Below, piece by piece: positions 2,964-38,053 of a stretch of 64,000 nt of DNA. Under the pieces are notes generated by a model. That model saw only the letters and a program-made list of their open reading frames with translations. It searched no databases and was not told where the DNA came from. A program made the translations under genes and the position numbers. This DNA is from a virus (Duplodnaviria; Caudoviricetes): IMG/VR virus record IMGVR_UViG_3300028833_000006, positions 47,213 through 111,212 of that record; one strand, 5' to 3'. The number at the start of each line of letters is the position of its first letter. The first letter of the stretch is position 1.

Positions 2964-3857
2964 TTAAGGTTCAATATTGAATTGAATAGCACCAGCCTTG
3001 TTATTGAGAATGAATACGTCCTCGAATGACTCCTCAAAGTAGATGTACTTACCTTCTGAACCAGCACTAGGCTCGTCTAACTTAGAGAATGTGTAAGATA
3101 CGGGTGTAATTACTGCTGTGGGCTGTACAAGGAACATATTAATCTGCTTTGCGCCAGTAGCAGGCTTCCAACCCTGTGTGAAGTCGTAAAGTGTCTTCAT
3201 AAGGGGTGCAGGAACACCAATTATCTCTACTTCGTCAAGTCTGTTGACTACTCTATCAATCTTGTGGTTATTATCTGTTACGTCTATGCTACGAGAAATC
3301 TTGTCAGCTTCCTTAAGAATGTACTTAACTTCATTCGTAACATAAAGGATTCTACCATTAACGGGTACTCTTGCATTATCCATCTTAAGCATAAGTGCAT
3401 CAAATACTTGAAGTGCGTTTGCTGATGTGATAACAGTCGTGTCAGCCGCAGTAGTTGCGAGTGCATTCCAATCTGAGAAAATCTTTGAAACGCAGTATGC
3501 ATCCATCTCGGGGAACTTCTGCTCTTCGTTGAATACCTTTGTGATATTCTGAATGGTAGTAACCATGTTTGTCTGGTCAACATCCATAGGATGTACGAGC
3601 GTAGACCACTTTCTCTGATTTTTAAGGGTCTTCGTCTCCCAGTTGTTGTCGTAATTTCTCTGTGCCGTTGCAATCGTGTCACGGTTAGAGTCCACACGAC
3701 CTGTGGTTGAGATACTAGGTATCTCGATTGTCTTTGCGTTTACCCAACGATATGTATTGTTGTTGGGAGTGTTGTAAAGTGCACCAAAGTTAAGTGTGTA
3801 CGGAAAAGCCTGTGCAAGTGCTCTTGAGTACTGTGTTGCATAATTCAATGCTGCCAT
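2964..3857 (-). CDS. Major capsid protein
   Basis: 297 aa after scaffold; TIEIP, PEMDAY, RILYVT, QINMFLV motifs typical of Firmicutes phage capsids. Confidence 0.85.
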   Translation of the reverse strand: MAALNYATQYSRALAQAFPYTLNFGALYNTPNNNTYRWVNAKTIEIPSISTTGRVDSNRDTIATAQRNYDNNWETKTLKNQRKWSTLVHPMDVDQTNMVTTIQNITKVFNEEQKFPEMDAYCVSKIFSDWNALATTAADTTVITSANALQVFDALMLKMDNARVPVNGRILYVTNEVKYILKEADKISRSIDVTDNNHKIDRVVNRLDEVEIIGVPAPLMKTLYDFTQGWKPATGAKQINMFLVQPTAVITPVSYTFSKLDEPSAGSEGKYIYFEESFEDVFILNNKAGAIQFNIEP

Positions 3858-3884: not shown

Positions 3885-4625
3885 TTAGTGAGACCTTACT
3901 CCTTGAAAGTCGAATGACCAATCTTCGTCACCGCTGTCAAACCCTTGTGCTGACCCAACAAATACTTCGGGAATCTCAATATCGTCAGGCTCAACTTCCT
4001 CTACCTTAGGCTCTTCAACAATCGGATGAGACACAACTTCTGACACTTCTGTCACAATCGGCTCAGGCTCTGGTAACTCTACTTTGAAAGCGTCTGCATT
4101 CTGCTCAGAATAGATAGATACAAAATCATCTGCACCTATTAGTCTATCCCCCTCCATCTGCAACTGCTTGGCAAGCATCTCCCTAGTGAAGTCTCTCTTA
4201 GCCGCCTCTGATGAGAATTGCTTTGTGTTAGCAAATTCCTTAACAGCAAACTCATACTTCTGCTGTGCCATAAGGTCTTTGTAATTCTTAACGTCTGCTT
4301 CGTACTTACTCTGTAAGTCTGACAGTGATGTCGTTAAGTCTGCTAACTTTGTAGCGTCCTCGTCAGCCGATTTTAACTTCTCTTGCAACTGTGCAAGGTC
4401 AGTATCCCTCGTGCTTATGGTCTCATTGAGTGTGTTTATCTGCTCGTCTCTAGTAGCAATCTCATTATCCTTCGCCTTGATAGCGGAATCAAATTTTGAT
4501 ACGCTGACATACTTACCGTCTGATAAGTCTGCAAATTTCGCCCCACTCTCTTTCGCCATTGCCTCGAACTGCTCATAGGTCAACTTACCGTCTTCGGCAT
4601 TCTCGAAAAGGTCTTTAATGTTCAT
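3885..4625 (-). CDS. Capsid scaffolding protein
   Basis: GKYVS..KF start, long coiled coil, acidic tail; directly upstream of capsid gene. Confidence 0.8.
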   Translation of the reverse strand: MNIKDLFENAEDGKLTYEQFEAMAKESGAKFADLSDGKYVSVSKFDSAIKAKDNEIATRDEQINTLNETISTRDTDLAQLQEKLKSADEDATKLADLTTSLSDLQSKYEADVKNYKDLMAQQKYEFAVKEFANTKQFSSEAAKRDFTREMLAKQLQMEGDRLIGADDFVSIYSEQNADAFKVELPEPEPIVTEVSEVVSHPIVEEPKVEEVEPDDIEIPEVFVGSAQGFDSGDEDWSFDFQGVRSH

Positions 4626-4848: not shown

Positions 4849-6996
4849 CTATACATTATCTTGTGTCTTGAGTTTTGTCGCTTTGGTCTTTTTCTGCTTT
4901 AAGACTTGTGACTGCATGGACTGATATGCGCCACCGCCAACTTTTCCTACACCACCATTTGTAGAAATTTGGTTGCCTTGATTTCCTTGCCCCCCTTGTG
5001 CCCCTTGTCCATTGGTAGGGGTGGGTGCTTGCTGTCCTTGATTATTCGTGCCCCTATTATTATTGGCTTGAGTTGAATTTAAATTTTGTTGCTCACCGCT
5101 GACACTCGTGTCACTTTCCTCATCCCCCTTGTCTGAGTTGGTGGGGCTTTGGCTATTACCGTTGGAATTAGGGGAGGGTTGTCCTTGTGCCATCATTGAT
5201 GAGACTGCCATGTTCTGCTCAATTGCTTGTTGAGATTCTTCTTGAACTCTTTGCAGTGCATCCATTGCCTGTCTCTTGGTCTCTCCGTAATACCACATTC
5301 TTGTTTCTAACTTGCTTGCCAATCCCTTGTCCATGAGAGTGAGCCTTGTGTTTAACTCTGTTACCATGTCTACTAGAATGCTGTCATCCCATGTGAATGA
5401 GACATCGTAAAGACCTAACTTCTTGGTGTCCACTTTGCCCCCTCGGATTACTACGTCTCCGACAATGTTGTAAATTGTGCAGTAAACGTCCATTGCGTAA
5501 ATTACGTCTTTAAGGGCTGACTCTAATGCTTTTTGGATTTCTGCGTTGCTTGCGTAACTTCTTTGCTTTAAAATCTTAATCTCTGTTGCTGTTCTCGCCT
5601 CTGCGCTCACGTCTGCGATTGTGCCCCTGCTTAATGCCACTACGTCTTCAATTCGCATCAAAAGCGTGTTTAATCCATTAATCATTGACGCATCTCTAAG
5701 GCTTGGTGCGTAAGGTTTGTAAGTGTCTGACTCACCTAAGTCAACTGGTCTGTAAAGTCTTTGCTGTAAGTGCCCCATCATTGAATGAGAATTACCCTTA
5801 AAGTCTGTTACATCTGTAAGTGCATCTCTGTCAATGTCAATTGCTAATTCGCCACCTTCGTACTCCCAAAGTAATCTAGAATACTGTAAATCCGCTTGCT
5901 TGATTAACTCCTTTGCTCTTGCGAAACCACTGATTCCTAACGGTGAGTGCGGGTCAATCGTGTTTGCTTCTGGCATCTTAAAATAACCAAACATCATTCG
6001 GTCTACGTTCTTAATTGTTGCCCTCTGCGGAATGTTCTTCCATTCTGGAACTTGCTTTAACTCAATCTCTGCCCCAAGCACTGCGTTGCCCAAAGTCATC
6101 GTGTTGTCTGTTCGGTTCAGACTCCTAAATGCTCTGTTAGTGATTGTAACTGTGTTATTCTCCAACTTGTGATACTCTAACCTAGTGTAAGTGTATTCCT
6201 TGTCAACCTTGGTCTGTAAGAATGCTACCTCTATTAGATTGCCACTGCTGTCAAATGAAAAAGGATAAAAACAATCTGCTTGTACAAAGTCAAACTCTAT
6301 AGCGTACTTGTACTTCTTATTGTTCTTATCTGTTTTTATCTCTGCTGTTCCCTCTGTGTCATTAGTACTACTTTCAGAATTTGATTGCTCGTTTGTTGAT
6401 TCAGCGTTGGCTACACCTTCTGATTTCTGCTCTGCCTTTGCCCCCACCTTACTATTATCAAGTCCTGCTACCTCTGCTACTGCCATTCTTGTCACATAAG
6501 GTTTTATTATAAGACTACCTTTAGCAATACCCAATTCAAGTTGTGTTCTTAATCTAGAAAGCAACTTATCTTGGTATTCCTTATTCATAAACTCCGCTCT
6601 CTCTGTTGGAGATTTTGCTTTTTCCTTTATTACTGTTTTGGGTTTATTGCTAATAGATATGTTTCCATTTATATCTGATACTGGCGGTTGATACTCTGGA
6701 TTAACAACTTCTTGAATACTCATTGGTGCGGTTATCTCTGACTGTAATTCTAATACCGCCATCCTTGCTTTTTCACTTGCTATAAATGCTGGTAACCCCA
6801 AAGACGTTACTAATGAATGGTCTTTGAAATCTGGTTCGTGCAACCAATCTGCTCTGTCTTCATACATTGCTGTCCACTCATCAATAGCATCTATCATCTT
6901 ACTACTGATTGCTGGTGAAATATGTAATGTTTGTTCAATATTTTTAACACCTATCATACCTTGCACCTTCTCTTTAACTGTTGACCATAATGACAT
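4849..6996 (-). CDS. Portal protein with internal insertion and Q/N/G-rich C-terminal tail
   Basis: YTRLEYH, SPLGIS.FARA, YSRLLWEYEGG, RTATEI, WDDSI motifs of A118/SPP1-type portals; start moved to MSLW by RBS. Confidence 0.85.
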   Translation of the reverse strand: MSLWSTVKEKVQGMIGVKNIEQTLHISPAISSKMIDAIDEWTAMYEDRADWLHEPDFKDHSLVTSLGLPAFIASEKARMAVLELQSEITAPMSIQEVVNPEYQPPVSDINGNISISNKPKTVIKEKAKSPTERAEFMNKEYQDKLLSRLRTQLELGIAKGSLIIKPYVTRMAVAEVAGLDNSKVGAKAEQKSEGVANAESTNEQSNSESSTNDTEGTAEIKTDKNNKKYKYAIEFDFVQADCFYPFSFDSSGNLIEVAFLQTKVDKEYTYTRLEYHKLENNTVTITNRAFRSLNRTDNTMTLGNAVLGAEIELKQVPEWKNIPQRATIKNVDRMMFGYFKMPEANTIDPHSPLGISGFARAKELIKQADLQYSRLLWEYEGGELAIDIDRDALTDVTDFKGNSHSMMGHLQQRLYRPVDLGESDTYKPYAPSLRDASMINGLNTLLMRIEDVVALSRGTIADVSAEARTATEIKILKQRSYASNAEIQKALESALKDVIYAMDVYCTIYNIVGDVVIRGGKVDTKKLGLYDVSFTWDDSILVDMVTELNTRLTLMDKGLASKLETRMWYYGETKRQAMDALQRVQEESQQAIEQNMAVSSMMAQGQPSPNSNGNSQSPTNSDKGDEESDTSVSGEQQNLNSTQANNNRGTNNQGQQAPTPTNGQGAQGGQGNQGNQISTNGGVGKVGGGAYQSMQSQVLKQKKTKATKLKTQDNV

Positions 6997-7062
6997 ATTT
7001 ATATACCTCATATAATTATGTAAACTACCACAAAATATTATACTAAATATTTATTTCTGTGT

Positions 7063-25361: not shown

Positions 25362-25410
25362 AATCCATCTCCCAATAAGAAAGCACCCACAATCCGTTGG
25401 GTGTAGGTAC

Positions 25411-25557
25411 TCACTTTTTCTTCTTCTCCTTGTAACCAGACTTCTCAATAGCGTAACCTTGCTTTATGGCTTTCTGCTTTGCGCCCTTACCGCAATATAC
25501 TGTCTGATTACCCCACTGATAACAATCTTTCTTACCTTTTACTTTATGTACTGGCAT
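25411..25557 (-). CDS. 48-aa basic protein
   Basis: MPVHKVKG...YQWG...AKQKAIKQGYAI; GAGGTG RBS. Confidence 0.55.
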   Translation of the reverse strand: MPVHKVKGKKDCYQWGNQTVYCGKGAKQKAIKQGYAIEKSGYKEKKKK

Positions 25558-25695: not shown

Positions 25696-25902
25696 TTAAT
25701 ACATCATGTCTAAGCAACTTGCTACTGCTTGCGGTGAATGACTTGCTGACACACCCTTTACGTATCCGTCATAGTCATCCTTGATATGCGCCTTAACGCT
25801 ATCAGTATTGAAATACTTCACCATCTCATCGGTGCTGTAACCGCACCCCATGAATGCCTTTCTTACCGCCTTTGTGTAATCCTCAAATGTCATCTTACTC
25901 AT
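25696..25902 (-). CDS. Small protein, candidate immunity partner of 25899..26654
   Basis: ATGA overlap with upstream effector; followed by terminator hairpin. Confidence 0.55.
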   Translation of the reverse strand: MSKMTFEDYTKAVRKAFMGCGYSTDEMVKYFNTDSVKAHIKDDYDGYVKGVSASHSPQAVASCLDMMY

Positions 25903-26654
25903 CTCTGTTCTCCTTTCTTCTCCTTTATTTGTCTATCACGATATGCATATGCATTATCATAACCGTCATCACCGACATATGGCTTTGTGTTCTTTAGGAA
26001 TGTATCTAAATCAGTATTCTTGACATTGCCTATACCAACATACTTATAAAATACAACTTCCTCTTCGCCACAGCCACTTTTATCCCAACCATCTGGTGCG
26101 TAATCCTTATTAAATGGTGTCCAACTAATCGGCTCAAATCCATTGGCTGTATAGAACTTATGGTTACCTGCGAAACTATCAAGTTTCCTACCACCCATCT
26201 TAACTGCTTGGGCTAATAAATCCTTACCACGGACTGTATTATCACCCTGTTTCTTACATACACTAATGATATCACCCTCGTCTGTCACGGCTACTGTAGA
26301 ACCACCTTTGGATGTCCAACACTTACTATTGTGTTCTTTGTAGTCATCTGCGGTATGAACATCTACTCGCCACTTATCCTCAACTGGTCTTGATTCCTTG
26401 GCACTTGTAATATCTTTGTGGAATGTTGTAGCATCTACTGACCTACCACTATCACTGTTTGACTTACCATTAAGCCTATCTCTTTCAGCCTTTGCCTTGG
26501 CTATCTGCTGTTCCTTGACATCCTCATTATGGTCTGCAACGCTACGATTATCACCAAATGCTTTTCGTATAGCGTCTGCTTTAGTCTCGCCTGCACCTAT
26601 CGGTATATGTTTACCATTAACGGTTATCCATTGCAAATCTTTACTATCTGCCAT
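25899..26654 (-). CDS. WxTxxGxH-tagged protein with GNAT-like acetyltransferase domain
   Basis: WITVNGKHIPI tag; G.DLL..AV..GG.KLD.F...FY..NGF. Confidence 0.65.
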   Translation of the reverse strand: MADSKDLQWITVNGKHIPIGAGETKADAIRKAFGDNRSVADHNEDVKEQQIAKAKAERDRLNGKSNSDSGRSVDATTFHKDITSAKESRPVEDKWRVDVHTADDYKEHNSKCWTSKGGSTVAVTDEGDIISVCKKQGDNTVRGKDLLAQAVKMGGRKLDSFAGNHKFYTANGFEPISWTPFNKDYAPDGWDKSGCGEEEVVFYKYVGIGNVKNTDLDTFLKNTKPYVGDDGYDNAYAYRDRQIKEKKGEQR

Positions 26655-26655
26655 A

Positions 26656-26835
26656 TCACACCTCTAATACTTCTGCTAAATCATCTTCACCAACTGCGTA
26701 TACCTCATCATTGTTTGCTTTAACACCCCACGCATCAAGTTCTCTATCATATCCCATTACTTCATATATCTCGCCTTTGGTATATGCCCAACTTGACTCG
26801 CCTAAATATCTTACTTTCTTTCCTGCTTCTAACAT
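26656..26835 (-). CDS. Small SH3-like protein, candidate immunity partner
   Basis: KVRYLGE...TKGEIYEV; directly behind 26846..27367. Confidence 0.55.
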   Translation of the reverse strand: MLEAGKKVRYLGESSWAYTKGEIYEVMGYDRELDAWGVKANNDEVYAVGEDDLAEVLEV

Positions 26836-26845
26836 TTTACCCTCC

Positions 26846-27367
26846 TTACTTACGTGTTTCAAGGTTTCTTATATGCTCTTTAATAAATGCTTCTCTGACT
26901 TTTTTATCTTTACCCTGTACCCAATGTACCTCACGATTTAAGGTTACTTTACCATTAGTTATTTGTGCCATTCCTGCACAATGTTGCCAATCTTCTGGTT
27001 TACCACCCCAACGCTTTGCGTACTTAGATGCATCTCTAAATTCTTTTGAGCATCCTTTTCCTGCAAACACATATACATTCTTTATAAATGTACCATTCTT
27101 AAATCTGTACCTCTGTTTAGTCCTTAGATTTAACACATCAGATGATGTATTAGCCTCACTCGCTGGGATATCTGGTAAGTATAATATCTTTGGAAGTGGT
27201 TTTCTGCTATCAGCCTCTTCCTTATTTCTCGCCATCTGCTTATTCTTTATCTCTTCATTCTTCCTAGCGATAGACTCATTTTTAATCTGAGATTGAGATT
27301 TGTAATTAGGGTCTAGTAGTATATGCTTACCATTTACTGTTACCCAACGCATTTCTTGGTTTGCCAT
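26846..27367 (-). CDS. WxTxxGxH-tagged protein with putative nuclease-toxin domain
   Basis: WVTVNGKHILL tag; VFAGKG...WGG...WQH..G...EVHW motif. Confidence 0.6.
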   Translation of the reverse strand: MANQEMRWVTVNGKHILLDPNYKSQSQIKNESIARKNEEIKNKQMARNKEEADSRKPLPKILYLPDIPASEANTSSDVLNLRTKQRYRFKNGTFIKNVYVFAGKGCSKEFRDASKYAKRWGGKPEDWQHCAGMAQITNGKVTLNREVHWVQGKDKKVREAFIKEHIRNLETRK

Positions 27368-27378
27368 ATATCACACCC

Positions 27379-28665
27379 CTACTTCTTCTTGGGATGCTCT
27401 TTATCCCACTGTGCTTTTCGCTTCTCAGCATAAGCATTGTATTCAAATATCTTATCAGGTGTATAATTGAATGACTCATCGTGCTCTGCACTCTGAAAAG
27501 TATTCCATCTACCTTGGTCTATAATAGATAACTTCTTGCCACCAGTCTGACTTGCTACCTTAGTTAACTTCCTACCCGTATTATCCCACAATGTAAAACT
27601 ATCATAAAGACTTGCTATCTCTGGCACTGCCTTTTGTGCTTTCCTATGTGCACCCATCAATACTTCTACAGGGACTAAACGGTTCATACCATAATCGTCA
27701 CCCTTACAGTATCTGTATATGGAATTTTCCCTTACCGTAGGTTCGTCTGCAAAAATATAGTTTTGGTGACAAGTATAACCCTTATCACGACACGACTTCA
27801 ATCTTCTCTCGACACTCTTAGATTTTGTTGCTGTACCATCGTACATTACGGGATAGTTGTTATCTATAGCCATTGACCATACTTGGTCGGCTAATGCGGA
27901 ACTTTCATTGTGGTAGTATCCTGCATTGAACAAATCTTCTATCTTGGCATCAGGATTAGCTGCCTTAAGCGACTTAAACTCATCGTCATACATACCATTA
28001 GCCAAATCGTGTCTCCACAGCATGTACTTCAATCTGTCTGCGTCTATAACCAAATGTTGTTTATCACTGCCATAGAATTTACTAAACCCACTACCTTCAA
28101 GTGACATTGCGCTTAATTGCCCCTTACCAGCAGCACCACCGCCACCAGTAAACAACGCTTTCTTCTCCTCACCGGGCGCATAAGGCTTATATGTAACTGG
28201 ATGGTCTTCTCCATTTACGGGTATCTTATTAAAATAATCCTCAAGAACTTCTCTATGAATATCTGCTCTCTCTTGTGTGAGATTTCCATTCTTATCAAGT
28301 GCTCTATACATAGAGTCGCCATTAGGGAACTTATCATTAGGTTGTGTAGTAGTAATCTCATCATACTCACCTAACTTATAATCTTTACCCTTAAATGACA
28401 TCACGCCATTCTTGTTAGTTACTTTAGTACCTTGTGTGAGATTATCACGATATTTCTGCTCATCTTGCAATCTCTTCGCCTCGGATTGGGCTTTGGCTAT
28501 ATCAGACTGTTGCTTATCAACTGCCTTTGCGCCACGCTTACTGGCCTTTGCTTGTGACTGTTCCTTAACCCAACGCTTTACAGCATCATCTTTAGATTCA
28601 CCGTCATATAAGGGTACATGATTACCATTTATGGTTATCCAATTTTTCGGTTCTTTATTCGCCAT
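27379..28665 (-). CDS. WxTxxGxH-tagged zeta-toxin-like P-loop kinase
   Basis: WITINGNHVPL tag; GGGGAAGKG, IDAD..K, H.ESS.LA, YDGT, R.VP, WDN. Confidence 0.75.
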   Translation of the reverse strand: MANKEPKNWITINGNHVPLYDGESKDDAVKRWVKEQSQAKASKRGAKAVDKQQSDIAKAQSEAKRLQDEQKYRDNLTQGTKVTNKNGVMSFKGKDYKLGEYDEITTTQPNDKFPNGDSMYRALDKNGNLTQERADIHREVLEDYFNKIPVNGEDHPVTYKPYAPGEEKKALFTGGGGAAGKGQLSAMSLEGSGFSKFYGSDKQHLVIDADRLKYMLWRHDLANGMYDDEFKSLKAANPDAKIEDLFNAGYYHNESSALADQVWSMAIDNNYPVMYDGTATKSKSVERRLKSCRDKGYTCHQNYIFADEPTVRENSIYRYCKGDDYGMNRLVPVEVLMGAHRKAQKAVPEIASLYDSFTLWDNTGRKLTKVASQTGGKKLSIIDQGRWNTFQSAEHDESFNYTPDKIFEYNAYAEKRKAQWDKEHPKKK

Positions 28666-28677
28666 ACTAGTACCCCC

Positions 28678-28935
28678 TTACCACGGTATATTATGCTCTG
28701 CTCTAGACGCATAATCAAGTAATCTAAGTTTATACAACTCGTAATCAGCCTTATTCGCAAAATTATTTGCGCCCTTGATTGGTCTCCGATTGACAATATC
28801 ACCATATGCAATTGCGTCTACCTTGTTGTACTGCGGATTGTCATAATCACAATCATAATCAGCAATAACCTTTGGGTCATAGGTGACATTCTTGTAATAG
28901 GCAATCTCTTTTGGTGTCAAATTTTTATTTGCCAT
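28678..28935 (-). CDS. Small protein, candidate antitoxin of the zeta-like gene
   Basis: AGGAGG RBS, own early promoter, directly upstream of zeta-like ORF. Confidence 0.55.
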   Translation of the reverse strand: MANKNLTPKEIAYYKNVTYDPKVIADYDCDYDNPQYNKVDAIAYGDIVNRRPIKGANNFANKADYELYKLRLLDYASRAEHNIPW

Positions 28936-28965
28936 CTTCTTATCCTCCTTTCCTATTCTCTTTCC

Positions 28966-29024
28966 ATAATAAGTATATACCAATATGTCAAGAGTGTCAA
29001 TAGGAATTTTGAAAAATTTTTCAA
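28966..29024 (-). promoter_or_regulatory. Repeated early promoter
   Basis: Palindrome + TTGACA-17-TATACT. Confidence 0.8.
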
Positions 29025-29194
29025 TATTTACTTTAAATCATCTTCTTCTGGGTCTTCCCACCACGGTATTTGTATCATATAATATACCCAATAGTTTACA
29101 TAATAAAACAACCTATCCATATTATACTGAATAGGTTGCCTAATGTCTACTCTTCTTCACTAGTTTCCATTTTTCTATACGCAAAAAATGTAGG

Positions 29195-29386
29195 CTACGC
29201 TCTCCGTGCAATTGTGATATCGTTACTAATTTTTAAACTTGTCGCCCTTTCCAAATCTTCTGCTCTGACTACTATCATATTTGCCATTGGTCTTGATTCT
29301 ATTGGATATATACCATTCTTATTAAGTTTCTTAATCTGCTTTGATATAACTGAATAGTTCTGCATTGTCTTCATATTATATTCCAC
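29195..29386 (-). CDS. Hypothetical protein
   Basis: ORF packing. Confidence 0.45.
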   Translation of the reverse strand: MEYNMKTMQNYSVISKQIKKLNKNGIYPIESRPMANMIVVRAEDLERATSLKISNDITIARRA

Positions 29387-29588
29387 TAATCTCCCTCACA
29401 TAACAATCATCTAGTTTTGCGAAATCAGACCTACCTGCACCTATCCGAACATACAACTTACCGTCATCCTTATTCAAATATACTCTATTCCACTCCTCGT
29501 CATCATCAAGCCACACTATAACCTTTGTAATTACAAATCCGTCTGTTCTTGTCATACCAATTCTCCTTTCTACTCTGCCCACACACAT
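29376..29588 (-). CDS. Hypothetical protein
   Basis: RBS before MTRTD. Confidence 0.5.
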   Translation of the reverse strand: MCVGRVERRIGMTRTDGFVITKVIVWLDDDEEWNRVYLNKDDGKLYVRIGAGRSDFAKLDDCYVREISGI

Positions 29589-29869
29589 CTCTCACTGTAC
29601 GGAACATATCTCTTTGCTACCTTAAACCACTTCTTATTATCAAGCGAAACCTCTAAATATTCACATACCATTGTGACATCATAAGTTGAGCACATTCTGT
29701 AATCTCTCTTAATATAATTATCGCCCAAATCCTTGACGCAACGAAGATATCTGTAAAAACCGTCCTTGATATAATACACGATATCCTTAATTAAAGGTTC
29801 TTCACCCTTAATAATCTCTTCCCAACCCATTGCTTTCATATTATTTACGGATAATTCTGCTCTAGTCAT
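29570..29869 (-). CDS. Hypothetical protein
   Basis: AAAGGAG RBS behind cassette promoter. Confidence 0.6.
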   Translation of the reverse strand: MTRAELSVNNMKAMGWEEIIKGEEPLIKDIVYYIKDGFYRYLRCVKDLGDNYIKRDYRMCSTYDVTMVCEYLEVSLDNKKWFKVAKRYVPYSERCVWAE

Positions 29870-29886
29870 ATTGGTTATCTCCTTTC

Positions 29887-29949
29887 CTTACAATACCATT
29901 ATAGGTGTATACTTATATATTGTCAAGTAATTTTTGAAAAATTTTTCAA
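29887..29949 (-). promoter_or_regulatory. Repeated early promoter
   Basis: Palindrome + TTGACA-17-TATAAT + GTAAGG. Confidence 0.85.
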
Positions 29950-30025
29950 ATGACTTACACTTGAATCATATATGATACATTTAATACAACAAAAAGGACA
30001 GCCAAAACTGACTGTCCAATTTAAA

Positions 30026-30682
30026 TCATATTAACTTAGTTTGGTGTGGTTTCTTTTTGTCTACAACCGTCATATGCCGTAATTTACCTGCACAACTCCT
30101 AGAACAAGTTTTAGTCGGCTCATACTTGTTTATACTAAACTCCTTACCGCAAATGACACATACCCTAGTAACATTATCCTTACCAACATGTCTCCTATAA
30201 TAAGATTTACAAGCATTGCTACAAAAAGTATTCTTCTTACCTGTATTGCACGCAATAAACTCTTTGCCACAATTAGTGCATGTACATGTTATGGGTGCAT
30301 TTAAAATACCCCGCTCTATTAACCGCTTTGCGTTCTCTCTACTAACGGCTCTACCCTCTTCTGACCTATGCCACGCACTCGCTCTACTTCTATACCTGGC
30401 TAATGTTTCAATATCCTTTTGTAATCTTTCTTCGGACTTATGTGTTCCATGATATGTAGAATGCGTCTCATTTGATAAACATTCTAAATTAGATATATCA
30501 TTATTGCCACGGTTCTCATCCCTATGGTGTATTACACAACCTTTTGGAATCACACCCACTTCATGTTCCCACACATATCTATGCATCAAAACCGTATGAC
30601 CATCAAGTTTTGTAATAAAATATCCATCAGACCGCCTAGTAAATTTAATACCATTGTAAAATTGTACCCTACTCTCTGCCAT
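30026..30682 (-). CDS. Free-standing HNH homing endonuclease with zinc-finger repeats
   Basis: MHRYVW...IHHRDENRGNN.ISNL...H; two CxxCGKEF...CS..C repeats. Confidence 0.85.
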   Translation of the reverse strand: MAESRVQFYNGIKFTRRSDGYFITKLDGHTVLMHRYVWEHEVGVIPKGCVIHHRDENRGNNDISNLECLSNETHSTYHGTHKSEERLQKDIETLARYRSRASAWHRSEEGRAVSRENAKRLIERGILNAPITCTCTNCGKEFIACNTGKKNTFCSNACKSYYRRHVGKDNVTRVCVICGKEFSINKYEPTKTCSRSCAGKLRHMTVVDKKKPHQTKLI

Positions 30683-30760
30683 ATCATACCTCCTATATAT
30701 AGGAATAGTATAACAAGAATAGGCAGAAAAGTAAATATCCGTATCGCACAATATCCGCAA

Positions 30761-32756
30761 TTAGTTACCTTTTCTACTTGCGTATTTGTCAATACCGTAC
30801 CTTACCGCATCAATACTGTGGTCGTTCCCATCTGGATATGCACTAATGAAATTACCTTCCTTGTCTGTCTCATACTCATAGTTAGTAAATTCTGCATAGG
30901 TGTAGGGGCACTTTCGTCTATCTATATAAATGTGATTAAGTCCCTGTAACCACTTCATAGAATAAGTACGACTCTCTGGCCCCTTTACAGCACCACGGAT
31001 AAATGCGCCATACGCCTTAAAGTCTGCTATTGACTTCGGCTCTGCGGAATCTGCGATAAGTTGCTCATCCTTCCTAATGAGTTTTTTCTCCTCATATAAC
31101 TCATCAAAAATTTCCTTATTCCTCTTCATATAGGTGTTGTATTCTCTAAAGATGTACAAATCTAAATGCTTAGCATCAAAATGCATTTTAACAAATCTAG
31201 TAGGGTCTTTAGCGAACATATTTAACCCTTATCTACCCTCGGTTTCCCGATATTTATTAGGGGATTAGACTATCTCTTAATATTATGGTTTACATAATAT
31301 TCAGTGCACTTCGGACTGTGCTAATCTCAGCCCTACTTCCTTACGGAATAGTCGTTACACCTTTCCTTTCGGACTTGGCACGGTATTGTCATAGGCTGTT
31401 GCCCTTAGAGTTTCACCGTTAGCCGTATCTTCATATGACACCGCTTTTGCTTGCGTTCACACTGTTTTATACTGGAGCTACGCTACCCAACCCCAGTCCA
31501 ATCCATTATAAATCTTGTCAAATGTCTGCCACATAGGTACTTGTCTGTCACCCATCTCTACCAGTTGCTCCATGTCCAAGTCTTCTGCATTAGGGAATAC
31601 ATCTCCACCTGTACCAATGGCTACACCCATGTATTCATGGATATAGGCTCTCTCATTCCTCTGCCTTAACTCCTCTGCCTCTTCCACAAACTGCATCCCT
31701 AGCCAGTCTATAGGGACATCAAAGTAAGTATTACTTGTTACTAATGTATTCTCTTGCAACTCTGCCTGCTCTGCATATTGATTAGCCCAATTAAGTTTAC
31801 TGATAGGAGGGTTGAATGTTCTAAAATCCCAAAAGTTTTGACCACCACGCATTGTAGACTGTAATACCTTACGTATCTCTGCCTCGCCTGCGAACTGGTC
31901 AAGTTCCTCACTTGGAGCATTGCGTATATAGCGTAAAGTTTTGTTATACGCTCCTATATTACTATAGGGTTCGGACTATATCATACTGTATATAACTGTT
32001 ACCATTACATACAGCCCTTGCGCTTCGCTTTCGCTACTCTACTTACTTCTTCACATAAGGATTTCTCTTATGCTATGCTTTCGATAGTCTCTGAGCCTTC
32101 CTATCACATGGTTTGTGCATATTGCACAATGGATTTCTGAAATCGCAAAATCAGTTTGTATTTCCCTAGGGGAGATTTTTTATACCCCAAGGATACCCAA
32201 TTCCGCAAACCCTTGATTTTACTGCATTTGTAGACTTATGTGCAAATTGCACAATAAAATGATAGGCTTGGTTGCTGATTGTCCTATATGCGTATAGGAT
32301 TTCCAGCAGTTCACAAGGTTTTACATGGTCTGAGGTCTAGTTAAACCATGTTATCCCGATGTAGCCAAATGACAGTTTGATTGACTTAACCTTATTTGGG
32401 TCATCTAACCCCATAAAGATTATCTTCTGGCCAGTCGGAATATATGTTATAGGTGTTGAATAAGTTTTTGGAATCTTAAACAGACTGTCTACCCCTAACT
32501 GATATATCCCCCATACTACTTGGGCAAATATACTGTTCTGTATTGTATTTCCTACCTTGCGGAAACATACAGCGTGTACAGTGGGATTTGACATAATGAG
32601 TAGCGGAATACAAATACCACCGTAAAAAGAAGACTTTGTACTTCCTCTACCACCTTTACCAACATAATGTGTATGCTTATGTTGTAATATATCTTGTAGA
32701 ATAGGTTTATACATAGGTATAATACATCTATCTAAAGATATACTCATATCACTCAT
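30761..32756 (-). CDS. terL: Terminase large subunit, three exons (32756-32344, 31910-31490, 31216-30761; 429 aa)
   Basis: GGRGSTKS Walker A; splicing restores WFEELDQF (Walker B) and GLDWGFAKDP; TFNPP and DHSIDAVRY motifs. Confidence 0.9.
31217..31489 (-). mobile_element. Group I intron 2 in terL (273 nt, no ORF)
   Basis: P1 ACUGGGGU/GCUCCAGU with U-G at splice site; GACUA/UAGUC P7; terminal G at 31217. Confidence 0.9.
31911..32343 (-). mobile_element. Group I intron 1 in terL (433 nt, no ORF)
   Basis: P1 ACAUGGUU/GACCAUGU; P10 CCUCA/UGAGG; UGCUGG and AAUCAGCA P/Q; CAGAGACUA and AUAUAGUCC R/S; terminal G at 31911. Confidence 0.92.
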
Positions 32757-32981
32757 TCTCTTACCTCCTTTTATTTTACTCTGTGTCAATATTCAATTTT
32801 CAAGGTGCACATCATGGTGGTGTAGCCACTCGCTATTATCCACCCACCACTCAACTTATTGTTATTGTACTGTCCAATTTATCACTCTGTCAAATATTTG
32901 TACACAATGGGTACAAAAAAGGCTTGTTTTATACGCAAGCCTTATATTTTCCCTATAGGAACTTTTTATCTATGTATAGTC

Positions 32982-33500
32982 TTATGTGAGGTCAAGATTG
33001 CCCATTTCATCAGCATTTTCAGTTGGTGTAGCCACTATGTCCTTGACCAATTTCATCCCACTCTCTGCACTCTCACTACTAGCCCAATCTAATGTTATCT
33101 TTATCTCTGGTGTCTTATTGCTCTCTAACTTATTAGGTATGTCTATAAGCCTTTTTGCCAACTCTTGTGCCGCCTTTGTGCGCTCTGCTAAACTCGCTTC
33201 AAGTCCGAATTGGTCTGTGATTTCGCCCCTTGCCACTGAACTGAAATATTCGAGCACTTCTTCTGCTGTCATAATGCTAGATTTCCTTATTTCTTGCATT
33301 CTGTAAGCAATTTCATTGGCGATATAGTCTTTTTTCAGCAGTGCGTTTGCTTGCTGTGCAGGTGTCCTACTCTTATATCCTGCATTAATTGCACTTTGAG
33401 AAGCATTACTTGTTTCTATATATTCTGATATAAACTTATCTTCTCTTGGCGTTAAGGGATGTCCTGTATATGTTGTTAATTTTGTATTTACTTTTGGCAT
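32982..33500 (-). CDS. terS: Terminase small subunit
   Basis: LT.RE.KF..EY....NA.QSAI.AGY...A..LL, EVL...S..ARG, R.KAA.ELAK. Confidence 0.85.
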   Translation of the reverse strand: MPKVNTKLTTYTGHPLTPREDKFISEYIETSNASQSAINAGYKSRTPAQQANALLKKDYIANEIAYRMQEIRKSSIMTAEEVLEYFSSVARGEITDQFGLEASLAERTKAAQELAKRLIDIPNKLESNKTPEIKITLDWASSESAESGMKLVKDIVATPTENADEMGNLDLT

Positions 33501-33571
33501 ACTTATTATATACCTCTTTCTCTAATCTCTTATTCCGCCCGACTTTTGGGGATTTTTATATGACATGTATG

Positions 33572-33754
33572 TCATTTATTTACTTCTTGTACTAATCCTT
33601 TTGTTATCCAACTTAATGGTACTGCTTTTTGGTATCCCTTTATTGAATTTTGCCCCCGATTTTCCGTGAATTTTACTGCTATTCTAGGGTCTGCTTTTCC
33701 TAATTCTGTTAGTATAAATTTTGTATTTTCTGTTGCATGTTTATAAGTTACCAT
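33572..33754 (-). CDS. Hypothetical protein
   Basis: AGGAG RBS; stop inside TGACA-N4-TGTCA. Confidence 0.5.
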   Translation of the reverse strand: MVTYKHATENTKFILTELGKADPRIAVKFTENRGQNSIKGYQKAVPLSWITKGLVQEVNK

Positions 33755-33931
33755 TTGGATTTAGTACTCCTAGATTATTTGAAATATTTTTCATATTTCA
33801 CTTTTTCCGCAAAACATATTTTTTGACATTAGTGTCATATTGTCTTGTTTTTGTTTACATAAAACATTATATCACAAAAAGGTAAAAGAAAAAAGAGATA
33901 TTTTTATCTCTTCTCTCTTATGACACATATG

Positions 33932-34462
33932 TCATTTTACTATTCTTGTATGTACATACCACTTAGCTGGTTCTGTTTTATATTCATCTTCATCATTAAA
34001 TCTTCCTGCACTATCTACGGGTTGATATTCTAATATATATTGTACTCCGTTATTACTATCACTTGGATTATTATATTGTTCTGCCTCACCCGCTTTTACG
34101 CTTGCCCTTAATGCATCTGCTTCGCCCTTATCATATTTACCTAATGCCTTTGCTAAATCACTCAATGCACCTTTGAGTGTTGGCTTATTACTATATCCGT
34201 CTATATCTACAAACTTATCCGTAATTATCGCTGTACCAAATACAAGTATATTGCTTGGTATATCCTCTTCTTTTCTCGTAGTACCCTTACTATCATTAAT
34301 GTCTTTGATATTTTTAGTACTTTGCTCTATCTGCTTTGCTTTTAAGTCTTCATTATTTTTGGCTACTTGTCTATTGTATGCGTCTTGGGTAGTTTCACCT
34401 TTATATATTGGCACATGTACCCCTTTTATTGTGACCCATTTTTCTATTTCTCGCTCTACCAT
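33932..34462 (-). CDS. WxTxxGxH-tagged protein, unknown C-terminal domain
   Basis: WVTIKGVHVPI tag + coiled coil. Confidence 0.7.
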   Translation of the reverse strand: MVEREIEKWVTIKGVHVPIYKGETTQDAYNRQVAKNNEDLKAKQIEQSTKNIKDINDSKGTTRKEEDIPSNILVFGTAIITDKFVDIDGYSNKPTLKGALSDLAKALGKYDKGEADALRASVKAGEAEQYNNPSDSNNGVQYILEYQPVDSAGRFNDEDEYKTEPAKWYVHTRIVK

Positions 34463-34486
34463 AATTTAACCTTTCTGACACATATG

Positions 34487-35266
34487 TCATTTTCTTTTAT
34501 TTGGTACTAAATATTCTTGTTCTGCTGTTGTTTGATAACTTCCCCATGTATCTATAGGTCTTATTTTTATCTCTGTTATTTTATCGCCAAACTTTTCCGC
34601 TATTTTTCTATCTGGTGTATAAGCACTGAATATATCATTTGCTACTTGTTTTTGTCCGTATTCACCTCTATACATTGTTATTGGTGTTGTTAACCAATCT
34701 TTGAATGATAACGGTTTTTCTTTACTGCCCCGAATTTTTTGTATTTCAATATCGCCCAAGTAATTGTGATATGCTATATTAAGCCCTGCATTTAATGTAC
34801 CTTTATTGGACAGTATATAGTCTACTAATTTTGGTTTGATATCACTATTCGCACTTCTAAACCAACCACTATGTGTTTGCTCTGGAATACTCTCTCTTAT
34901 CTTGGATACTGCATCTTCTATTTTCATCTCATGCACATCCTTAAGTTCCTCTTCCGCTCTCTTATCTCGCCACAACTGCTTTACCATATCCATATGGTGT
35001 GTTCTGCCATATTCTTTGAATTGTGGATTTGACATATTATCTTTTATGAATGCCTTAAAATCAGTATTATCTTTTACTGTTGGTATATCTGATTTACCGT
35101 TTAACTTATCCGCTTGCTCTTTGGCTTTTGCGATTTGTTTTTCTTTGGTATCTTCATTCTTTTCTGCTATATATCTATTTACTGCTTTGTCTTTTGATTC
35201 ACCGTCCATTATTGGTATATGTTGACCGTTTACAGTAATCCATTGTTTTACTTCTCTTTCTGCCAT
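34487..35266 (-). CDS. WxTxxGxH-tagged ADP-ribosyltransferase-like protein
   Basis: WITVNGQHIPI tag; MYRG, SAYT....A..F, EQEYLV (R-S-E). Confidence 0.7.
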   Translation of the reverse strand: MAEREVKQWITVNGQHIPIMDGESKDKAVNRYIAEKNEDTKEKQIAKAKEQADKLNGKSDIPTVKDNTDFKAFIKDNMSNPQFKEYGRTHHMDMVKQLWRDKRAEEELKDVHEMKIEDAVSKIRESIPEQTHSGWFRSANSDIKPKLVDYILSNKGTLNAGLNIAYHNYLGDIEIQKIRGSKEKPLSFKDWLTTPITMYRGEYGQKQVANDIFSAYTPDRKIAEKFGDKITEIKIRPIDTWGSYQTTAEQEYLVPNKRK

Positions 35267-35349
35267 TTATAATACTCCATAAATTCAGTATTTATCAGCG
35301 TTTCACGGATTTATGTCCGTGAGTGACAAACATATGACATGTATGTCAT

Positions 35350-35790
35350 TTATTTTGACTTGTCTTTCTTATTACGGAAATACCACTCTTTGCCCTCGTC
35401 CGAGTTAGCAAATGCCTTTGCCTCTTTCAATGTCGAAAATTTTTGTCTCTCCTTAAGCCATGCTTGGTTCTTTATACCTAACTCATATCCGCTCTCTTTC
35501 CACGATGTGTTTGGTGAATTATGTGTGTATTTATCAATCTTAAATAATTCACTCTCATATCTTTTATTATTAATAGACGAATGAACCAACTTAAATATCT
35601 GTGGTGCATACTCACTATTATTCATCCGATTTACTTGGTCGGCACGGTCTTTTATTTGCTGTTCTTTTATATCTTCATTGGCTTTAGCAACTGACCTATT
35701 ATATGCGTCTTGTCTGCTCTCTCCCTCAAAGATTGGAACATGTTTTCCATTTACCGTTATCCAATCCTTTACCTCTCTTTGCTGTACCAT
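35350..35790 (-). CDS. WxTxxGxH-tagged protein, unknown C-terminal domain
   Basis: WITVNGKHVPI tag; FSTLKEAK motif. Confidence 0.7.
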   Translation of the reverse strand: MVQQREVKDWITVNGKHVPIFEGESRQDAYNRSVAKANEDIKEQQIKDRADQVNRMNNSEYAPQIFKLVHSSINNKRYESELFKIDKYTHNSPNTSWKESGYELGIKNQAWLKERQKFSTLKEAKAFANSDEGKEWYFRNKKDKSK

Positions 35791-35815
35791 AATATCCTCC
35801 TAATTGACACCTATG

Positions 35816-35956
35816 TCACTTTTTCTGTAATCTCTCATAATATGCCTTAACCTTTTTCATATCAGGTAAGTTCTCTGTCGGTCGTTTATAGTTTTTTGGC
35901 ATATCTATCATCGAATCTGGCTCTTTGTATGTTTTTGGTTTCTGCTCAATTATCAT
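35816..35956 (-). CDS. Small protein, candidate partner of the peptidase
   Basis: GGGGG RBS directly after peptidase stop. Confidence 0.45.
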   Translation of the reverse strand: MIIEQKPKTYKEPDSMIDMPKNYKRPTENLPDMKKVKAYYERLQKK

Positions 35957-35969
35957 ACTTTTACCCCCT

Positions 35970-37037
35970 TTATTTAGAATACAATCGCTCATAAAATTCT
36001 TTAACACCATTTGTATCAGTAGACGTTACATTACTATACAATTGATTTGTAAGTCTCATAACCTCTTGTGCCAATATATTTGCACTAGTACCATAGGCTT
36101 TATAATTTATATAGGATTCTGCAAACACCTCAGTATTAAAATCTTTTCCGTGTATATCCTCGGTATTGTAATGATTCGTAAACACATAGCCGCTCAATTG
36201 GTGAACTAATTGTCCCACTGTCGGTTTACTACTAAACCATCCGTACTTCTTCCAATTTTTCTGAACATTATTTATTGCCAAGGGAACTATGATACCACTT
36301 ATCATAGGATTACTTGCAGGATTAGTATTAAAATCAGCACAAGAATACAATTTACCGTCTAATTTAAAACACTTGACGCTTGTGTCACAATCTGGTATAT
36401 CTGATACAACCTCATCAACCTTTAACTTTCGCCCAAGTGCCCTACCATATGCCTCTGCCCACTTCTCATTACGCATTGTTGTGGGTTCTTTATACACTAA
36501 CGGTGCGTGATTCATTAACACATTATACATCTGCATATCCACATTATGTGCTAATTCATGTGCTACAATGCTATCTGCAAAATCACCGTTTCCTGCCAAA
36601 TACCCCTTGTCACAAAGACCTTCGATGTGCTCTTGCGTAAACTCATAATCATTAAATAAATCACTACGCAATTGCAACATACCTAGTCCATTCATAGCAC
36701 CAAGCGTGCCACCCATTTTAGATTTATCTTCAATCTGTATATAATCTATCTCTTTAACCTCTGGATAATCATTATGTATATCTTGTGCTACCCTTGTAAT
36801 ATCATCAACAAATCTTTTATCCTTGATTGTACCAAGTATCTTAAAATTATCTTTATTTACCTTGGTCGGATTTAACTGTTCTGCTTGCTCTTTAGCCTTT
36901 GCTATGTCACGCTCTTTTTTGCTTTCATTCTGCATAGCAACACTACGATTAAATGCGTCTTGTACAGATTCACCGTCATATATCGGTACGTGATTCCCGT
37001 TTATCGTTACCCAATTTTTTACTTCTCTATCAGCCAT
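35970..37037 (-). CDS. WxTxxGxH-tagged zincin metallopeptidase
   Basis: WVTINGNHVPI tag; HELAH and distal EVFAES. Confidence 0.75.
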   Translation of the reverse strand: MADREVKNWVTINGNHVPIYDGESVQDAFNRSVAMQNESKKERDIAKAKEQAEQLNPTKVNKDNFKILGTIKDKRFVDDITRVAQDIHNDYPEVKEIDYIQIEDKSKMGGTLGAMNGLGMLQLRSDLFNDYEFTQEHIEGLCDKGYLAGNGDFADSIVAHELAHNVDMQMYNVLMNHAPLVYKEPTTMRNEKWAEAYGRALGRKLKVDEVVSDIPDCDTSVKCFKLDGKLYSCADFNTNPASNPMISGIIVPLAINNVQKNWKKYGWFSSKPTVGQLVHQLSGYVFTNHYNTEDIHGKDFNTEVFAESYINYKAYGTSANILAQEVMRLTNQLYSNVTSTDTNGVKEFYERLYSK

Positions 37038-37082
37038 AATATATCTCCAATATGACAAGTCTGTCATATATTGATTATACCA

Positions 37083-37113
37083 AAAAAGCGATAATATTAC
37101 TACTATCGCTTTT
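37083..37113 (-). terminator. Intrinsic terminator
   Basis: AAAAGCGATA/TATCGCTTTT stem with U-run. Confidence 0.6.
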
Positions 37114-37143
37114 CCGTGTATGCCAGTGTATTTACAAAGAAGA

Positions 37144-37332
37144 TTATTTATAATCTTCTAATGTACCTGCTCCGTCAACTATTTCTTGTAAATCTTTATC
37201 AAGTACAAAATCATCATCCTCTTCTGCTATCAACTCGGCAGCCACCTCTTCACCAAAAACCTCTATGAGTTTCTTGTGACAGAAATCAATTCTATTCTCC
37301 ACATCCCTATCTAATGATACCGCTCTTGCCAT
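37144..37332 (-). CDS. Small acidic protein, candidate partner of the JAB protein
   Basis: AGGAGG RBS; directly downstream of 37358..38053. Confidence 0.55.
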   Translation of the reverse strand: MARAVSLDRDVENRIDFCHKKLIEVFGEEVAAELIAEEDDDFVLDKDLQEIVDGAGTLEDYK

Positions 37333-37357
37333 TTGTTATACCTCCTTTATATCACCA

Positions 37358-38053
37358 TTATTTTAAATTTTTACCTGCCTTGGTTGCAACATACTTAAAT
37401 CCAATTTTCTCAAGGTTTTTTGAATATGTTCTATCAAACATACCTACTGAATACTGTCTAGCATATGCATATGCTTGCTTGGGTGTCATAGGCGGTCTAT
37501 ATGTAACCTTACCAGTTGAGCCATCCACCAACTTAACCATACCCTTATGTGGGCCAGACTTAAGTGGTGTTGTTGCCGCTTTAAGTGCTCTGTCATACGA
37601 CTTATTAAAGTTTTTCTCAAGAATACTTTTCTTTGAATTTACCCACTTTGCTAATTTCTCTCTATCAGCATTCTCTGACGCAACTATAGAATACAACTGA
37701 CCTTGTTTTGTAGTTGCTCTCAATTCTTTCCAATTTGACTGTGCAAATGTCTTTAAATCTGTAAGTGATAGTGTACCACCTAATGCATTATTTGGATGTA
37801 AATGAGTAACACTTGCACCCTCGGTCTCTTTAGCATTTAAGATTTTAGGGTCAATGTTAACAGAATGCCTATCACCCTCATATGCTTGCATAAAATTACC
37901 GTCCTTATCAAATATAGCAAGTGTTTCTACACGACCTTGACCAAAGCCCTTTTCCTTGGTCTCATCTTTTGCTCTCAATTCCCACTCATCTATCGTAGGT
38001 TTACCAGTCACAACCAAATGTTTAACATTTCCACCAACTACTATCCCACCCAT
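37358..38053 (-). CDS. JAB/MPN-like protein, Met-Gly start
   Basis: E.LAIFD..G, THLHP......S..D motif. Confidence 0.7.
   Translation of the reverse strand: MGGIVVGGNVKHLVVTGKPTIDEWELRAKDETKEKGFGQGRVETLAIFDKDGNFMQAYEGDRHSVNIDPKILNAKETEGASVTHLHPNNALGGTLSLTDLKTFAQSNWKELRATTKQGQLYSIVASENADREKLAKWVNSKKSILEKNFNKSYDRALKAATTPLKSGPHKGMVKLVDGSTGKVTYRPPMTPKQAYAYARQYSVGMFDRTYSKNLEKIGFKYVATKAGKNLK

Follow-up and report, generated by a model that had tools for sequence, protein, structure and literature searches.

Why do seven otherwise unrelated proteins, encoded on both sides of the terminase genes of a rumen phage, begin with the same short sequence? The window (the whole 64-kb stretch of DNA that was analysed) comes from a complete sheep-rumen phage genome of 111,212 bp with direct terminal repeats. 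The original prediction was that this N-terminal tag is a portable prohead-loading address for swappable effectors, in a phage that does without MuF. We consider it somewhat probable that the tag marks modular effector cargo travelling inside the phage head.

The tag is a real protein family that is named in no library. A six-frame scan of the window with the pattern W[IVLM]T[IVLM].G.H[IVLM] gave exactly seven matches, with a chance expectation of ~0.002 by a rough estimate, and all of them lie 7-9 residues past the ATG of minus-strand ORFs. Exactly seven minus-strand ORFs open with M-x(6-8)-W[IV]T[IV][NK]GxH[IV][PL]. In their alignment M1, W9, T11, G14, H16 and P18 are invariant at pairwise identities of 42-58%, the ORF at 26846 reading HILL with its aligned proline three residues further on. 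The scan and the alignment hence agree with the predicted set of seven, including the HILL variant. GE(S/T)xxDA and NExxKxxQI, said to follow the motif in most copies together with a coiled coil, do so in six of the seven, and past about residue 60 the proteins share no relationship, again as anticipated. The module covers ~35 residues, W-x-T-x-(N/K)-G-x-H-(I/V)-(P/L)-I..G(E/Q)(S/T)..A, and is predicted to form a beta-hairpin and then a helix. The claim would have been weakened by an already characterised domain, and we found no counterpart of the tag in Pfam, NCBIfam or PDB. The same genome encodes an eighth tagged gene outside the window (G000:C1:11183-11359), ~40 kb from the portal gene. 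Across the eight copies the invariant T, G and H are each written with 2-4 synonymous codons, and the proline with four over the seven copies having it; since the codons vary while the residues are fixed, selection acts at the protein level.

The tagged genes form two clusters, one on each side of the small and large terminase genes, as ORF positions and PHROG matches confirm. The small subunit gene terS (32982..33500, minus strand) matches phrog_51 (E 1.1e-30). The large subunit gene terL (30761..32789, minus) is split into three coding pieces, 32337-32789, 31478-31852 and 30761-31219, each matching PHROG terL, and a group I intron (RF00028) lies at 31952-32362 within this region. A joined form lacking 31216-31488 was seen in two contigs, one from an RNA library and one of DNA, the RNA-library contigs being uninformative on the level or timing of transcription. 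The second cluster lies upstream of terS and adjoins replication genes.

The head genes are those of an SPP1-like module. The portal protein (4849..7011, minus; 720 aa) is SPP1 gp6-like (phrog_533, E 1e-98) and is also matched by tblastn to the phiCD38-2 portal. A low-complexity stretch is inserted at ~180-236, and residues 600-720 form a C-terminal tail rich in Q, N and G. Directly after the portal gene comes that of the scaffolding protein (3885..4625, minus; PF06810 and phrog_194) and then that of the major capsid protein (2964..3857, minus), which is 68-69% identical to those of the C. difficile phages phiC2 and CDMH1. The PHROG and Pfam matches thus bear out the proposed order, with no MuF gene between portal and scaffold. 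A non-exhaustive search found no prohead-protease-like gene among the portal, scaffold and capsid genes.

Each tagged protein of the window carries one domain behind the tag, and all are encoded on the minus strand. Effector 1 (25899..26654; 251 aa, tag at residues 1 to ~60) has a C-terminal domain that matches no Pfam or PDB profile. Its homologues are present at nine related loci, in three of which the homologue lies directly upstream of a homologue of the 68-aa ORF at 25696..25902 (minus), a possible immunity or partner gene that shares 4 nt with the end of effector 1. Effector 2 (26846..27367; 173 aa), whose variant tag has HILL and lacks the GES helix cap, is predicted by AF2 to be a confidently folded alpha+beta domain (pLDDT >90, residues 55-160). 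This domain has no match in Pfam, PHROG, NCBIfam or PDB, which leaves its earlier label of nuclease without support; Foldseek gave no match to the fold, and the best VIA-align Z was 4.4. Immediately downstream is another 68-aa ORF (26656..26862, minus), a candidate cognate immunity protein whose homologue directly follows the effector-2 homologue in all seven related loci. This arrangement resembles the toxin and immunity ORF pairs of MuF systems (PMC5576092).

The remaining domain assignments fared unevenly. Effector 3 (27379..28665; 428 aa) is a member of the Zeta-toxin-type P-loop kinases, matching PF06414 over residues 160-353 with E 2.7e-14 and 53.5 bits (cut-off 22.3), as had been proposed. 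Effector 7 (35970..37037; 355 aa from the MADREVKNW start) is a putative zincin-like peptidase; its HExxH motif, noted earlier, is conserved across its family, and its profile matches are weak (Peptidase_M90, E 0.047; phrog_7153, E 0.009). The GNAT label of effector 1 and the ADP-ribosyltransferase (ART) label found no profile support. Effector 5 (34487..35266; 259 aa) shows partly conserved YRG...SxT...ExE-like motifs, but it matches no ART family profile in Pfam, NCBIfam or PDB, and when compared by hhalign with the tagged ART P0054 (PF03496) the tag alone aligns. Effector 4 (33932..34462; 176 aa) has a tag and no Pfam domain assigned to its C-terminus, and effector 6 (35350..35790; 146 aa), likewise without an assigned domain behind its tag, has a C-terminus that recurs in none of the sampled relatives.

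The tag is a portable module far beyond this genome. A profile search gave 894 clusters at E<=1e-3 and 218 at E<=1e-10, nearly all of them from metagenomes, and the tag was not found in any cultured phage. Of the best 150 matches nearly all have it within residues 1-60 (N-terminal in ~145 of them), and records carry 1-8 tags, in multi-copy arrays. The C-termini of 209 carriers fall into 91 unrelated, BLAST-distinct groups, as expected for a portable tag. A few carriers are ARTs or Zeta kinases (the Pfam matches being ADPrib_exo_Tox, ART-PolyVal and Zeta_toxin), while most groups have no known family.

Our data further indicate that the module is fused to proteins of the head. It stands behind a portal domain in seven proteins (PF04860, PF05133, PF06381, PF06074 and, in three, phrog_10963), between a MuF domain and a Gln_amidase toxin in one (L041), and behind a DUF2213 head-maturation protease domain in two (L044 and L053). 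In L084 it flanks an ART, and the 2,440-aa polyprotein P0162 has up to seven copies. The L041 MuF fusion has a post-tag domain that shares 52% identity over 193 aa with a free-tag protein encoded in that genome and is also similar to free-tag proteins at four other loci, and the ART of the L084 portal fusion matches a free-tag protein in L087. Judged by these matches, the same tag-plus-effector cassette can stand free or be joined to MuF or portal, and cassettes clearly move between genomes. Fusion to portal, MuF and prohead protease would place the module inside the prohead, and its position between these proteins and toxin-like domains suggests that it most likely marks proteins carried in the head and coinjected with the DNA.

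The free genes also tend to lie near packaging genes, as the original prediction required: they are found in the head and packaging modules of many phages. In relatives they are located between terL and portal, directly upstream of portal, and in distant phages directly before or after a portal (after it in L055 and L086) or near terL. The supposed independence from MuF holds in part. PF04233 and PF06152 were not found in the complete genome at E<=1, tblastn of the MuF proteins CDMH1 gp4 and phiCD38-2 gp04 against it gave matches of E>1 only, and none of the eight tagged proteins matches MuF; a MuF gene elsewhere, which would undercut the claim, was thus sought with negative results. PF04233, the main MuF family, is likewise present in none of eight near-complete relatives, while in the closest cultured head modules (CDMH1 and phiCD38-2) the portal gene is followed by one for MuF. 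However, PF04233 occurs in 8 of 40 tag-carrying records, often adjoining or fused to the tag gene, so the anti-correlation fails in general and "MuF-independent" is valid for this clade only.

The tagged genes belong to the known theme of MuF, portal and polyvalent effectors. MuF polymorphic toxins (Jamet et al. 2017, PMC5576092; Zhang et al. 2012, PMC3482391) likewise tie variable effectors (ART, peptidase, nuclease, deamidase) to the head-packaging module, with predicted capsid delivery, and immunity ORFs follow them (PMC5576092). The variable C-terminal domain with a small downstream ORF as likely immunity gene recurs here, and in L041 the tag lies directly between MuF and toxin. Unlike them, the window's tagged proteins have no N-terminal MuF domain in a genome without a MuF gene, and their genes are not directly downstream of the portal gene, a place occupied by scaffold. 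Where a phage usually has a single muf gene, this one has eight separate tagged genes, and the descriptions in PMC5576092 and PMC3482391 contain no shared ~35-aa module.

The polyvalent proteins and the portal- and MuF-fused phage effectors (Iyer et al. 2017, PMC5512222) are similar in being predicted to be injected and in their effector types (ART-PolyVal, Zeta and zincins). The multi-tag polyproteins fit this class, P0162 and L084 having the at least two effector domains that define it, whereas in the window the effectors are unbundled: each is a single-domain gene that brings a copy of the junction module, and they hence lie outside the class. The module matches no Pfam family, the LPD families of Iyer et al. 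included. In P1, several anti-defence proteins (Dar) are also built into the head and then ejected (PMC9024508, PMC12810830), but their incorporation is hierarchical and uses the dedicated proteins Hdf and DarA instead of a shared portable tag, and we noticed no sequence relationship with the tagged proteins. The capsid-targeting sequence (CTS) of the T4 internal proteins IPI-III and Alt (PMC9026906, PMC9958956) matches in architecture only, as a short N-terminal peptide on otherwise unrelated cargo. The T4 proteins, among which Alt is an ADP-ribosyltransferase, are loaded into the prohead and injected, as the tagged proteins may be. Loading in T4 requires the scaffolding core, and the gp21 protease cuts the peptide off, whereas no protease-like head gene is evident here. 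To our knowledge the ~10-residue CTS bears no resemblance to the tag module.

The tag could instead be a junction or processing element, i.e. a self-cleaving or protease-recognised hinge that frees the effector from an anchor or polyprotein, the free copies being products of gene fission that keep it for maturation or ejection. We hold this to be unlikely, yet the strongest of the alternatives. The module precedes each domain in the polyproteins P0162 and L084, its invariant residues are fully conserved in the portal, MuF and protease fusions, and the T4 peptides are likewise cleaved off (PMC9026906). The invariant Thr and His would sit opposite each other in the predicted hairpin if the N-G turn is its tip. 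Because an address is superfluous in a protein already fused to portal, the conserved residues make another role possible, and the module may serve in processing, as a hinge or as an ejection signal beyond addressing. But the turn Asn varies (N/K/S/R/D), which makes Asn-cyclisation chemistry unlikely, it is hard to see what a free protein would gain from a cut near residue 10, and the head module has no protease-like gene that our non-exhaustive search could find. The N-terminal location in most of the best matches suits a terminal signal better than a linker.

A somewhat less probable alternative is that the proteins are not packaged at all. In that case they would act in the cytoplasm, as polymorphic toxins or in anti-defence, and their shared N-terminus would bind a single partner, whether a chaperone or master inhibitor of the phage, a machine of the host, or a protease that acts on a degron. 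An obvious immunity ORF accompanies only some effectors, which would make a shared inhibitor economical, and the second cluster adjoins replication genes, with the same TGACA-N4-TGTCA boundary palindromes in both. Some free copies are distant from head genes, namely the eighth copy and one in L041, on the opposite strand ~10 kb away. These positions, together with MuF alongside the tag in several phages and the lack of a cultured carrier, count against cargo of the head. However, cytoplasmic action leaves unexplained why the module was joined, repeatedly and independently, to the rear of portal, MuF and prohead-protease domains, and why in unrelated phages the tagged genes so consistently neighbour those for portal and terminase. 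That the leader is a DNA- or RNA-level feature with no functional peptide, either homology through which cassettes are swapped by recombination or a leader for translation, would suit the evident mobility of the cassettes, but it is very improbable, being largely refuted by free synonymous variation with invariant amino acids, by only 42-58% protein identity between copies, and by a motif conserved in very distant phages and at internal positions.

Our preferred reading is that the tag serves a modular family of head-internal cargo proteins as their shared handle. Each cassette consists of the tag and one variable effector domain (Zeta kinase, ADP-ribosyltransferase, HExxH peptidase, glutamine deamidase and dozens more without assignment), and occurs as a small free gene in the packaging module, fused behind portal, MuF or prohead protease, or strung into polyproteins. 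In the MuF-less clade the free cassettes, eight in this genome, would be produced alongside the head proteins; the tag would retain their products in the prohead, from which they would exit with the DNA and act on the next host. Presence in the virion, retention there by the tag and injection are what we infer, and our first guess for the head component bound by the tag would be the portal. We speculate, more tentatively, that the hairpin-helix module could be a general transferable address for capsid loading, and possibly ejection, that works across several portal lineages and replaces MuF in some clades, the hundreds of unannotated domains behind it being injected effectors for host takeover or anti-defence.

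If the tag does mark head-loaded, injected proteins, one short profile would be enough to pick out first-strike phage effectors from metagenomes. Most of the at least 91 C-terminal groups have no known family. It would account for the delivery of such proteins by phages without MuF, and one cassette system would join free genes, portal, MuF and protease fusions, and polyvalent proteins. The tag might also prove useful as a small handle by which foreign proteins are loaded into capsids. Should one of the alternatives hold instead, the module is still a widespread, hitherto undescribed component of polymorphic effectors in phages.

The core pattern W-x-T-x-x-G-x-H of the tag occurs exactly seven times in the window by a six-frame regular-expression scan, each time 7-9 residues past an ATG, in agreement with the original observation of seven ORFs with a shared tag. 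The ORFs found by this core are effectors 1 to 3 at 25899-26654, 26846-27367 and 27379-28665 (cluster 1), and effectors 4 to 7 at 33932-34462, 34487-35266, 35350-35790 and 35970-37037 (cluster 2), all on the minus strand, which is the coding strand for every gene of the region. When their first 70 residues are aligned, the seven tags are 42-58% identical to each other, with M1, W9, T11, G14, H16 and P18 invariant. The segment GE(S/T)xxDA and a helix with NExxKxxQI come next in six of the seven copies, and no relatedness is found among the seven proteins past about residue 60. The window spans 47213-111212 of the phage record, which is complete, at 111,212 bp with direct terminal repeats, and which encodes an eighth tagged gene outside the window, P0008 (139 aa). 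Pairs of tags with non-homologous C-termini gave no significant sign of within-genome concerted evolution (identity 0.488 within versus 0.461 between genomes, p=0.08). The leader's second motif, D/NxDxKEKQIAxxKxEADxLNGK, is a separate element able to repeat, and two to three copies lie inside longer tagged proteins (P0107, P0110 and P0095; loci L026, L029 and L021), ahead of successive domains and without the W-T-G-H hairpin. We also observed TGACA-N4-TGTCA palindromes that precede tagged genes 4, 6 and 7 by 15-25 nt, counted from the start codon (window 33900-38100), and that recur at other gene boundaries of cluster 2, with none in cluster 1; these may be regulatory or terminator-like sites, bearing on expression timing.

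On sequence grounds, the tag is a real family and a portable module that had not been named previously. It has no match in Pfam, NCBIfam or PHROGs, and a profile of the seven tags, run against 1.84 billion representatives, matches 894 clusters at E<=1e-3 and still 218 at E<=1e-10; the match falls at residues 1-60 in almost every one of the top 150. A word-indexed search agrees, giving carriers of 126-763 aa, almost all of them unnamed metagenome proteins. Single-linkage BLAST sorts the 209 carriers that run on for 50 residues or more past the tag into 91 C-terminal groups, and only a handful of carriers have Pfam matches (ADPrib_exo_Tox, ART-PolyVal and Zeta_toxin). Against 50,697 cultured phage records, tblastn gave no match to the free-type tag, N-terminal on a small stand-alone gene, at E<=0.01, nor to the internal type, found inside larger proteins, at E<=1. 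The species-representative prokaryote genomes contain zero relatives by the first tag pattern and only two short MAG contigs by the second, internal-type pattern. The two are L090 (Thermoproteota) and L089 (Clostridia, water-buffalo caecum), the former being a 4.5-kb contig in an archaeal bin that may be mis-binned viral DNA.

We predicted the structure of the tag with AlphaFold2 from 93 tag sequences, and the model is a beta-hairpin (residues 6-12 and 15-20, pLDDT ~85-89) followed by a long helix. Foldseek finds no match to it in the PDB at E<=0.001, and the ESM Atlas gives no usable match by features and, by structure, only short beta-hairpin-plus-helix look-alikes, e.g. the N-terminal halves of Fer2/TGS. 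The sole non-trivial match of the tag profile in the PDB is the first hairpin of 3PSQ (E 7e-4 overall, 0.006 for the domain), which we take to be a class B sortase; homology was set aside here, the likeness being local to two strands. A model of the tag (residues 1-60) bound to the portal (residues 1-610), run without controls, scored 0.00, where the mark to reach was 0.32, and is uninformative either way.

The domains behind the seven tags could be assigned to different degrees. ORF 27379 is a Zeta-type kinase, as its zeta-like label had proposed. The HExxH of ORF 35970 (effector 7), labelled a peptidase, is conserved in its family, but searches against PDB profiles gave nothing meaningful for this family or for those of effectors 1 and 5; in the last, ORF 34487, R-S-E-like motifs are visible without profile support. 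The GNAT label of ORF 25899 (effector 1) likewise finds no profile to back it and is a guess. The nuclease label of ORF 26846 (effector 2) was neither backed nor ruled out by fold searches, its confidently predicted domain having no Foldseek match and reaching a Z of 4.4 at most in VIA-align. A homologous 68-aa ORF comes directly downstream of the homologues of ORF 26846 in 7/7 relatives, the arrangement seen in toxin-immunity gene pairs.

Several untagged genes surround the tagged ones. Two ADP-ribosyltransferase-like genes on the minus strand, at 38080-38862 (PF03496, E 1e-15) and 24624-25448 (PF03496, E 2e-4), flank the two tagged clusters and have a common N-terminus, MGSYG...SGG.Y, counted from internal ATGs, which may represent another shared leader. 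Close to the latter lies a QueC/PP-loop-like gene (23403-24449). Between the former and cluster 2 sits a 231-aa gene starting with MGGIVVGG (37358-38053, minus strand) with weak matches only (phrog_5057), and its homologues are found near tagged genes in two loci, L012 and L013.

The two tagged clusters are located in the packaging module, with terS (32982-33500) and a terL in three ORFs (30761-32789, minus strand) standing between them. Rfam places a group I intron (31952-32362) in one of the terL gaps. The second gap (~31216-31488) is missing from a single RNA-library contig and a single bovine-sample DNA contig, so there are alleles that lack the insert; 57 nt at ~31224-31286 share 90-94% identity with sequence in or near the terL of phages of Staphylococcus, Listeria and Enterococcus. 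Immediately after terL comes a gene for an HNH endonuclease (30026-30760). The window sequence is present in two sheep-gut DNA runs, from which it may derive, and two sheep metatranscriptome libraries have short contigs scattered over the region, tagged genes included, mostly identical to it (19/20 and 22/31 at >=99% identity); such contigs cannot tell how strongly or when the genes are transcribed, and they may stem from carried-over DNA.

MuF appears to be dispensed with in this clade. Some 19 kb downstream of the tagged clusters come the genes for the portal (720 aa), the scaffold and the major capsid protein, with zero genes between portal and scaffold. The major capsid protein shares 68-69% identity with its counterparts in the C. 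difficile phages CDMH1 and phiC2, and the portal shares 37% with the one in phiCD38-2; in CDMH1 and phiCD38-2 the portal is followed by a MuF-type minor head protein. The predicted lack of MuF in the genome was confirmed for the models PF04233 and PF06152, neither matching at E<=1 in the complete genome, and for the MuF proteins of CDMH1 and phiCD38-2, for which tblastn found nothing better than E ~2. The anti-correlation between tag and MuF stands within the clade, PF04233 being absent from 8/8 near-complete relatives with multiple tags, but it fails in general: PF04233 is in 8/40 records with a tag, often with MuF next to the tag gene or fused to it, and thus the tag is not generally exclusive of MuF. 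Close relatives (60-82 kb) have tagged genes between terL and portal, directly upstream of the portal, and distant phages have them directly before or after the portal, or near terL. The portal itself (4849-7011) has a low-complexity acidic/S/T/N insert of ~55 aa at residues ~180-236 and a Q/N/G/S-rich C-terminal tail of ~120 aa with a basic patch at its end, both missing from most relatives (555-636 aa). An N-terminal extension as an extra domain was rejected, residues 8-600 aligning to the portal of phiCD38-2 in two segments that the low-complexity insert separates.

Multiple tags per locus are frequent in viral metagenome contigs, with up to 7 per 20-kb locus and 8 per record, and the tag also occurs within larger proteins. 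It stands behind portal domains in seven proteins (PF04860, PF05133, PF06381, PF06074 and phrog_10963), behind DUF2213 head-maturation proteases in L044 and L053, and between a MuF domain and a glutamine-deamidase toxin in L041. Tags flank an ART on both sides in the portal fusion of L084, and the 2,440-aa protein P0162 has up to seven copies. The post-tag domain of the L041 fusion shares 52% identity with a free-tag protein encoded by that genome, and the ART of L084 has its match in a free-tag protein from a different phage (L087), so tag plus effector form a cassette, either free or fused to proteins known to be part of the prohead. The tag looks like a junction where effectors join or leave head anchors.

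Three lines of evidence jointly put the cassettes inside the prohead, namely the fusions, the fact that free and fused forms are equivalent, and the packaging-module position, and judging from the sequence they may well be head-internal cargo, a reading we hold with moderate confidence. The proposal that the tag is a prohead address is partly supported, by the portable module, the diverse C-termini, the genomic position and the fusions, but loses the exclusivity of MuF beyond the clade. The tag stays conserved within covalent portal fusions, suggesting more than a simple address, and it might instead serve in processing, as a hinge or in ejection, though we consider this unlikely. That the tagged proteins are not packaged and the tag binds a common partner seems to us more doubtful still, as it leaves unexplained the fusions behind portal, MuF and protease domains and the placement beside portal and terminase genes. 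A DNA-level feature is largely excluded, since several synonymous codons write the invariant residues across the eight copies of the genome, which indicates selection on the peptide and not on DNA or RNA.

Effector fusion to MuF and portal is already established (PMC5576092, PMC3482391, PMC5512222), and the tag module is not described in the MuF-toxin and polyvalent-protein literature searched, i.e. these three papers. Polymorphic effectors delivered from phage heads are a known theme, to which the portable tag module is the new part.
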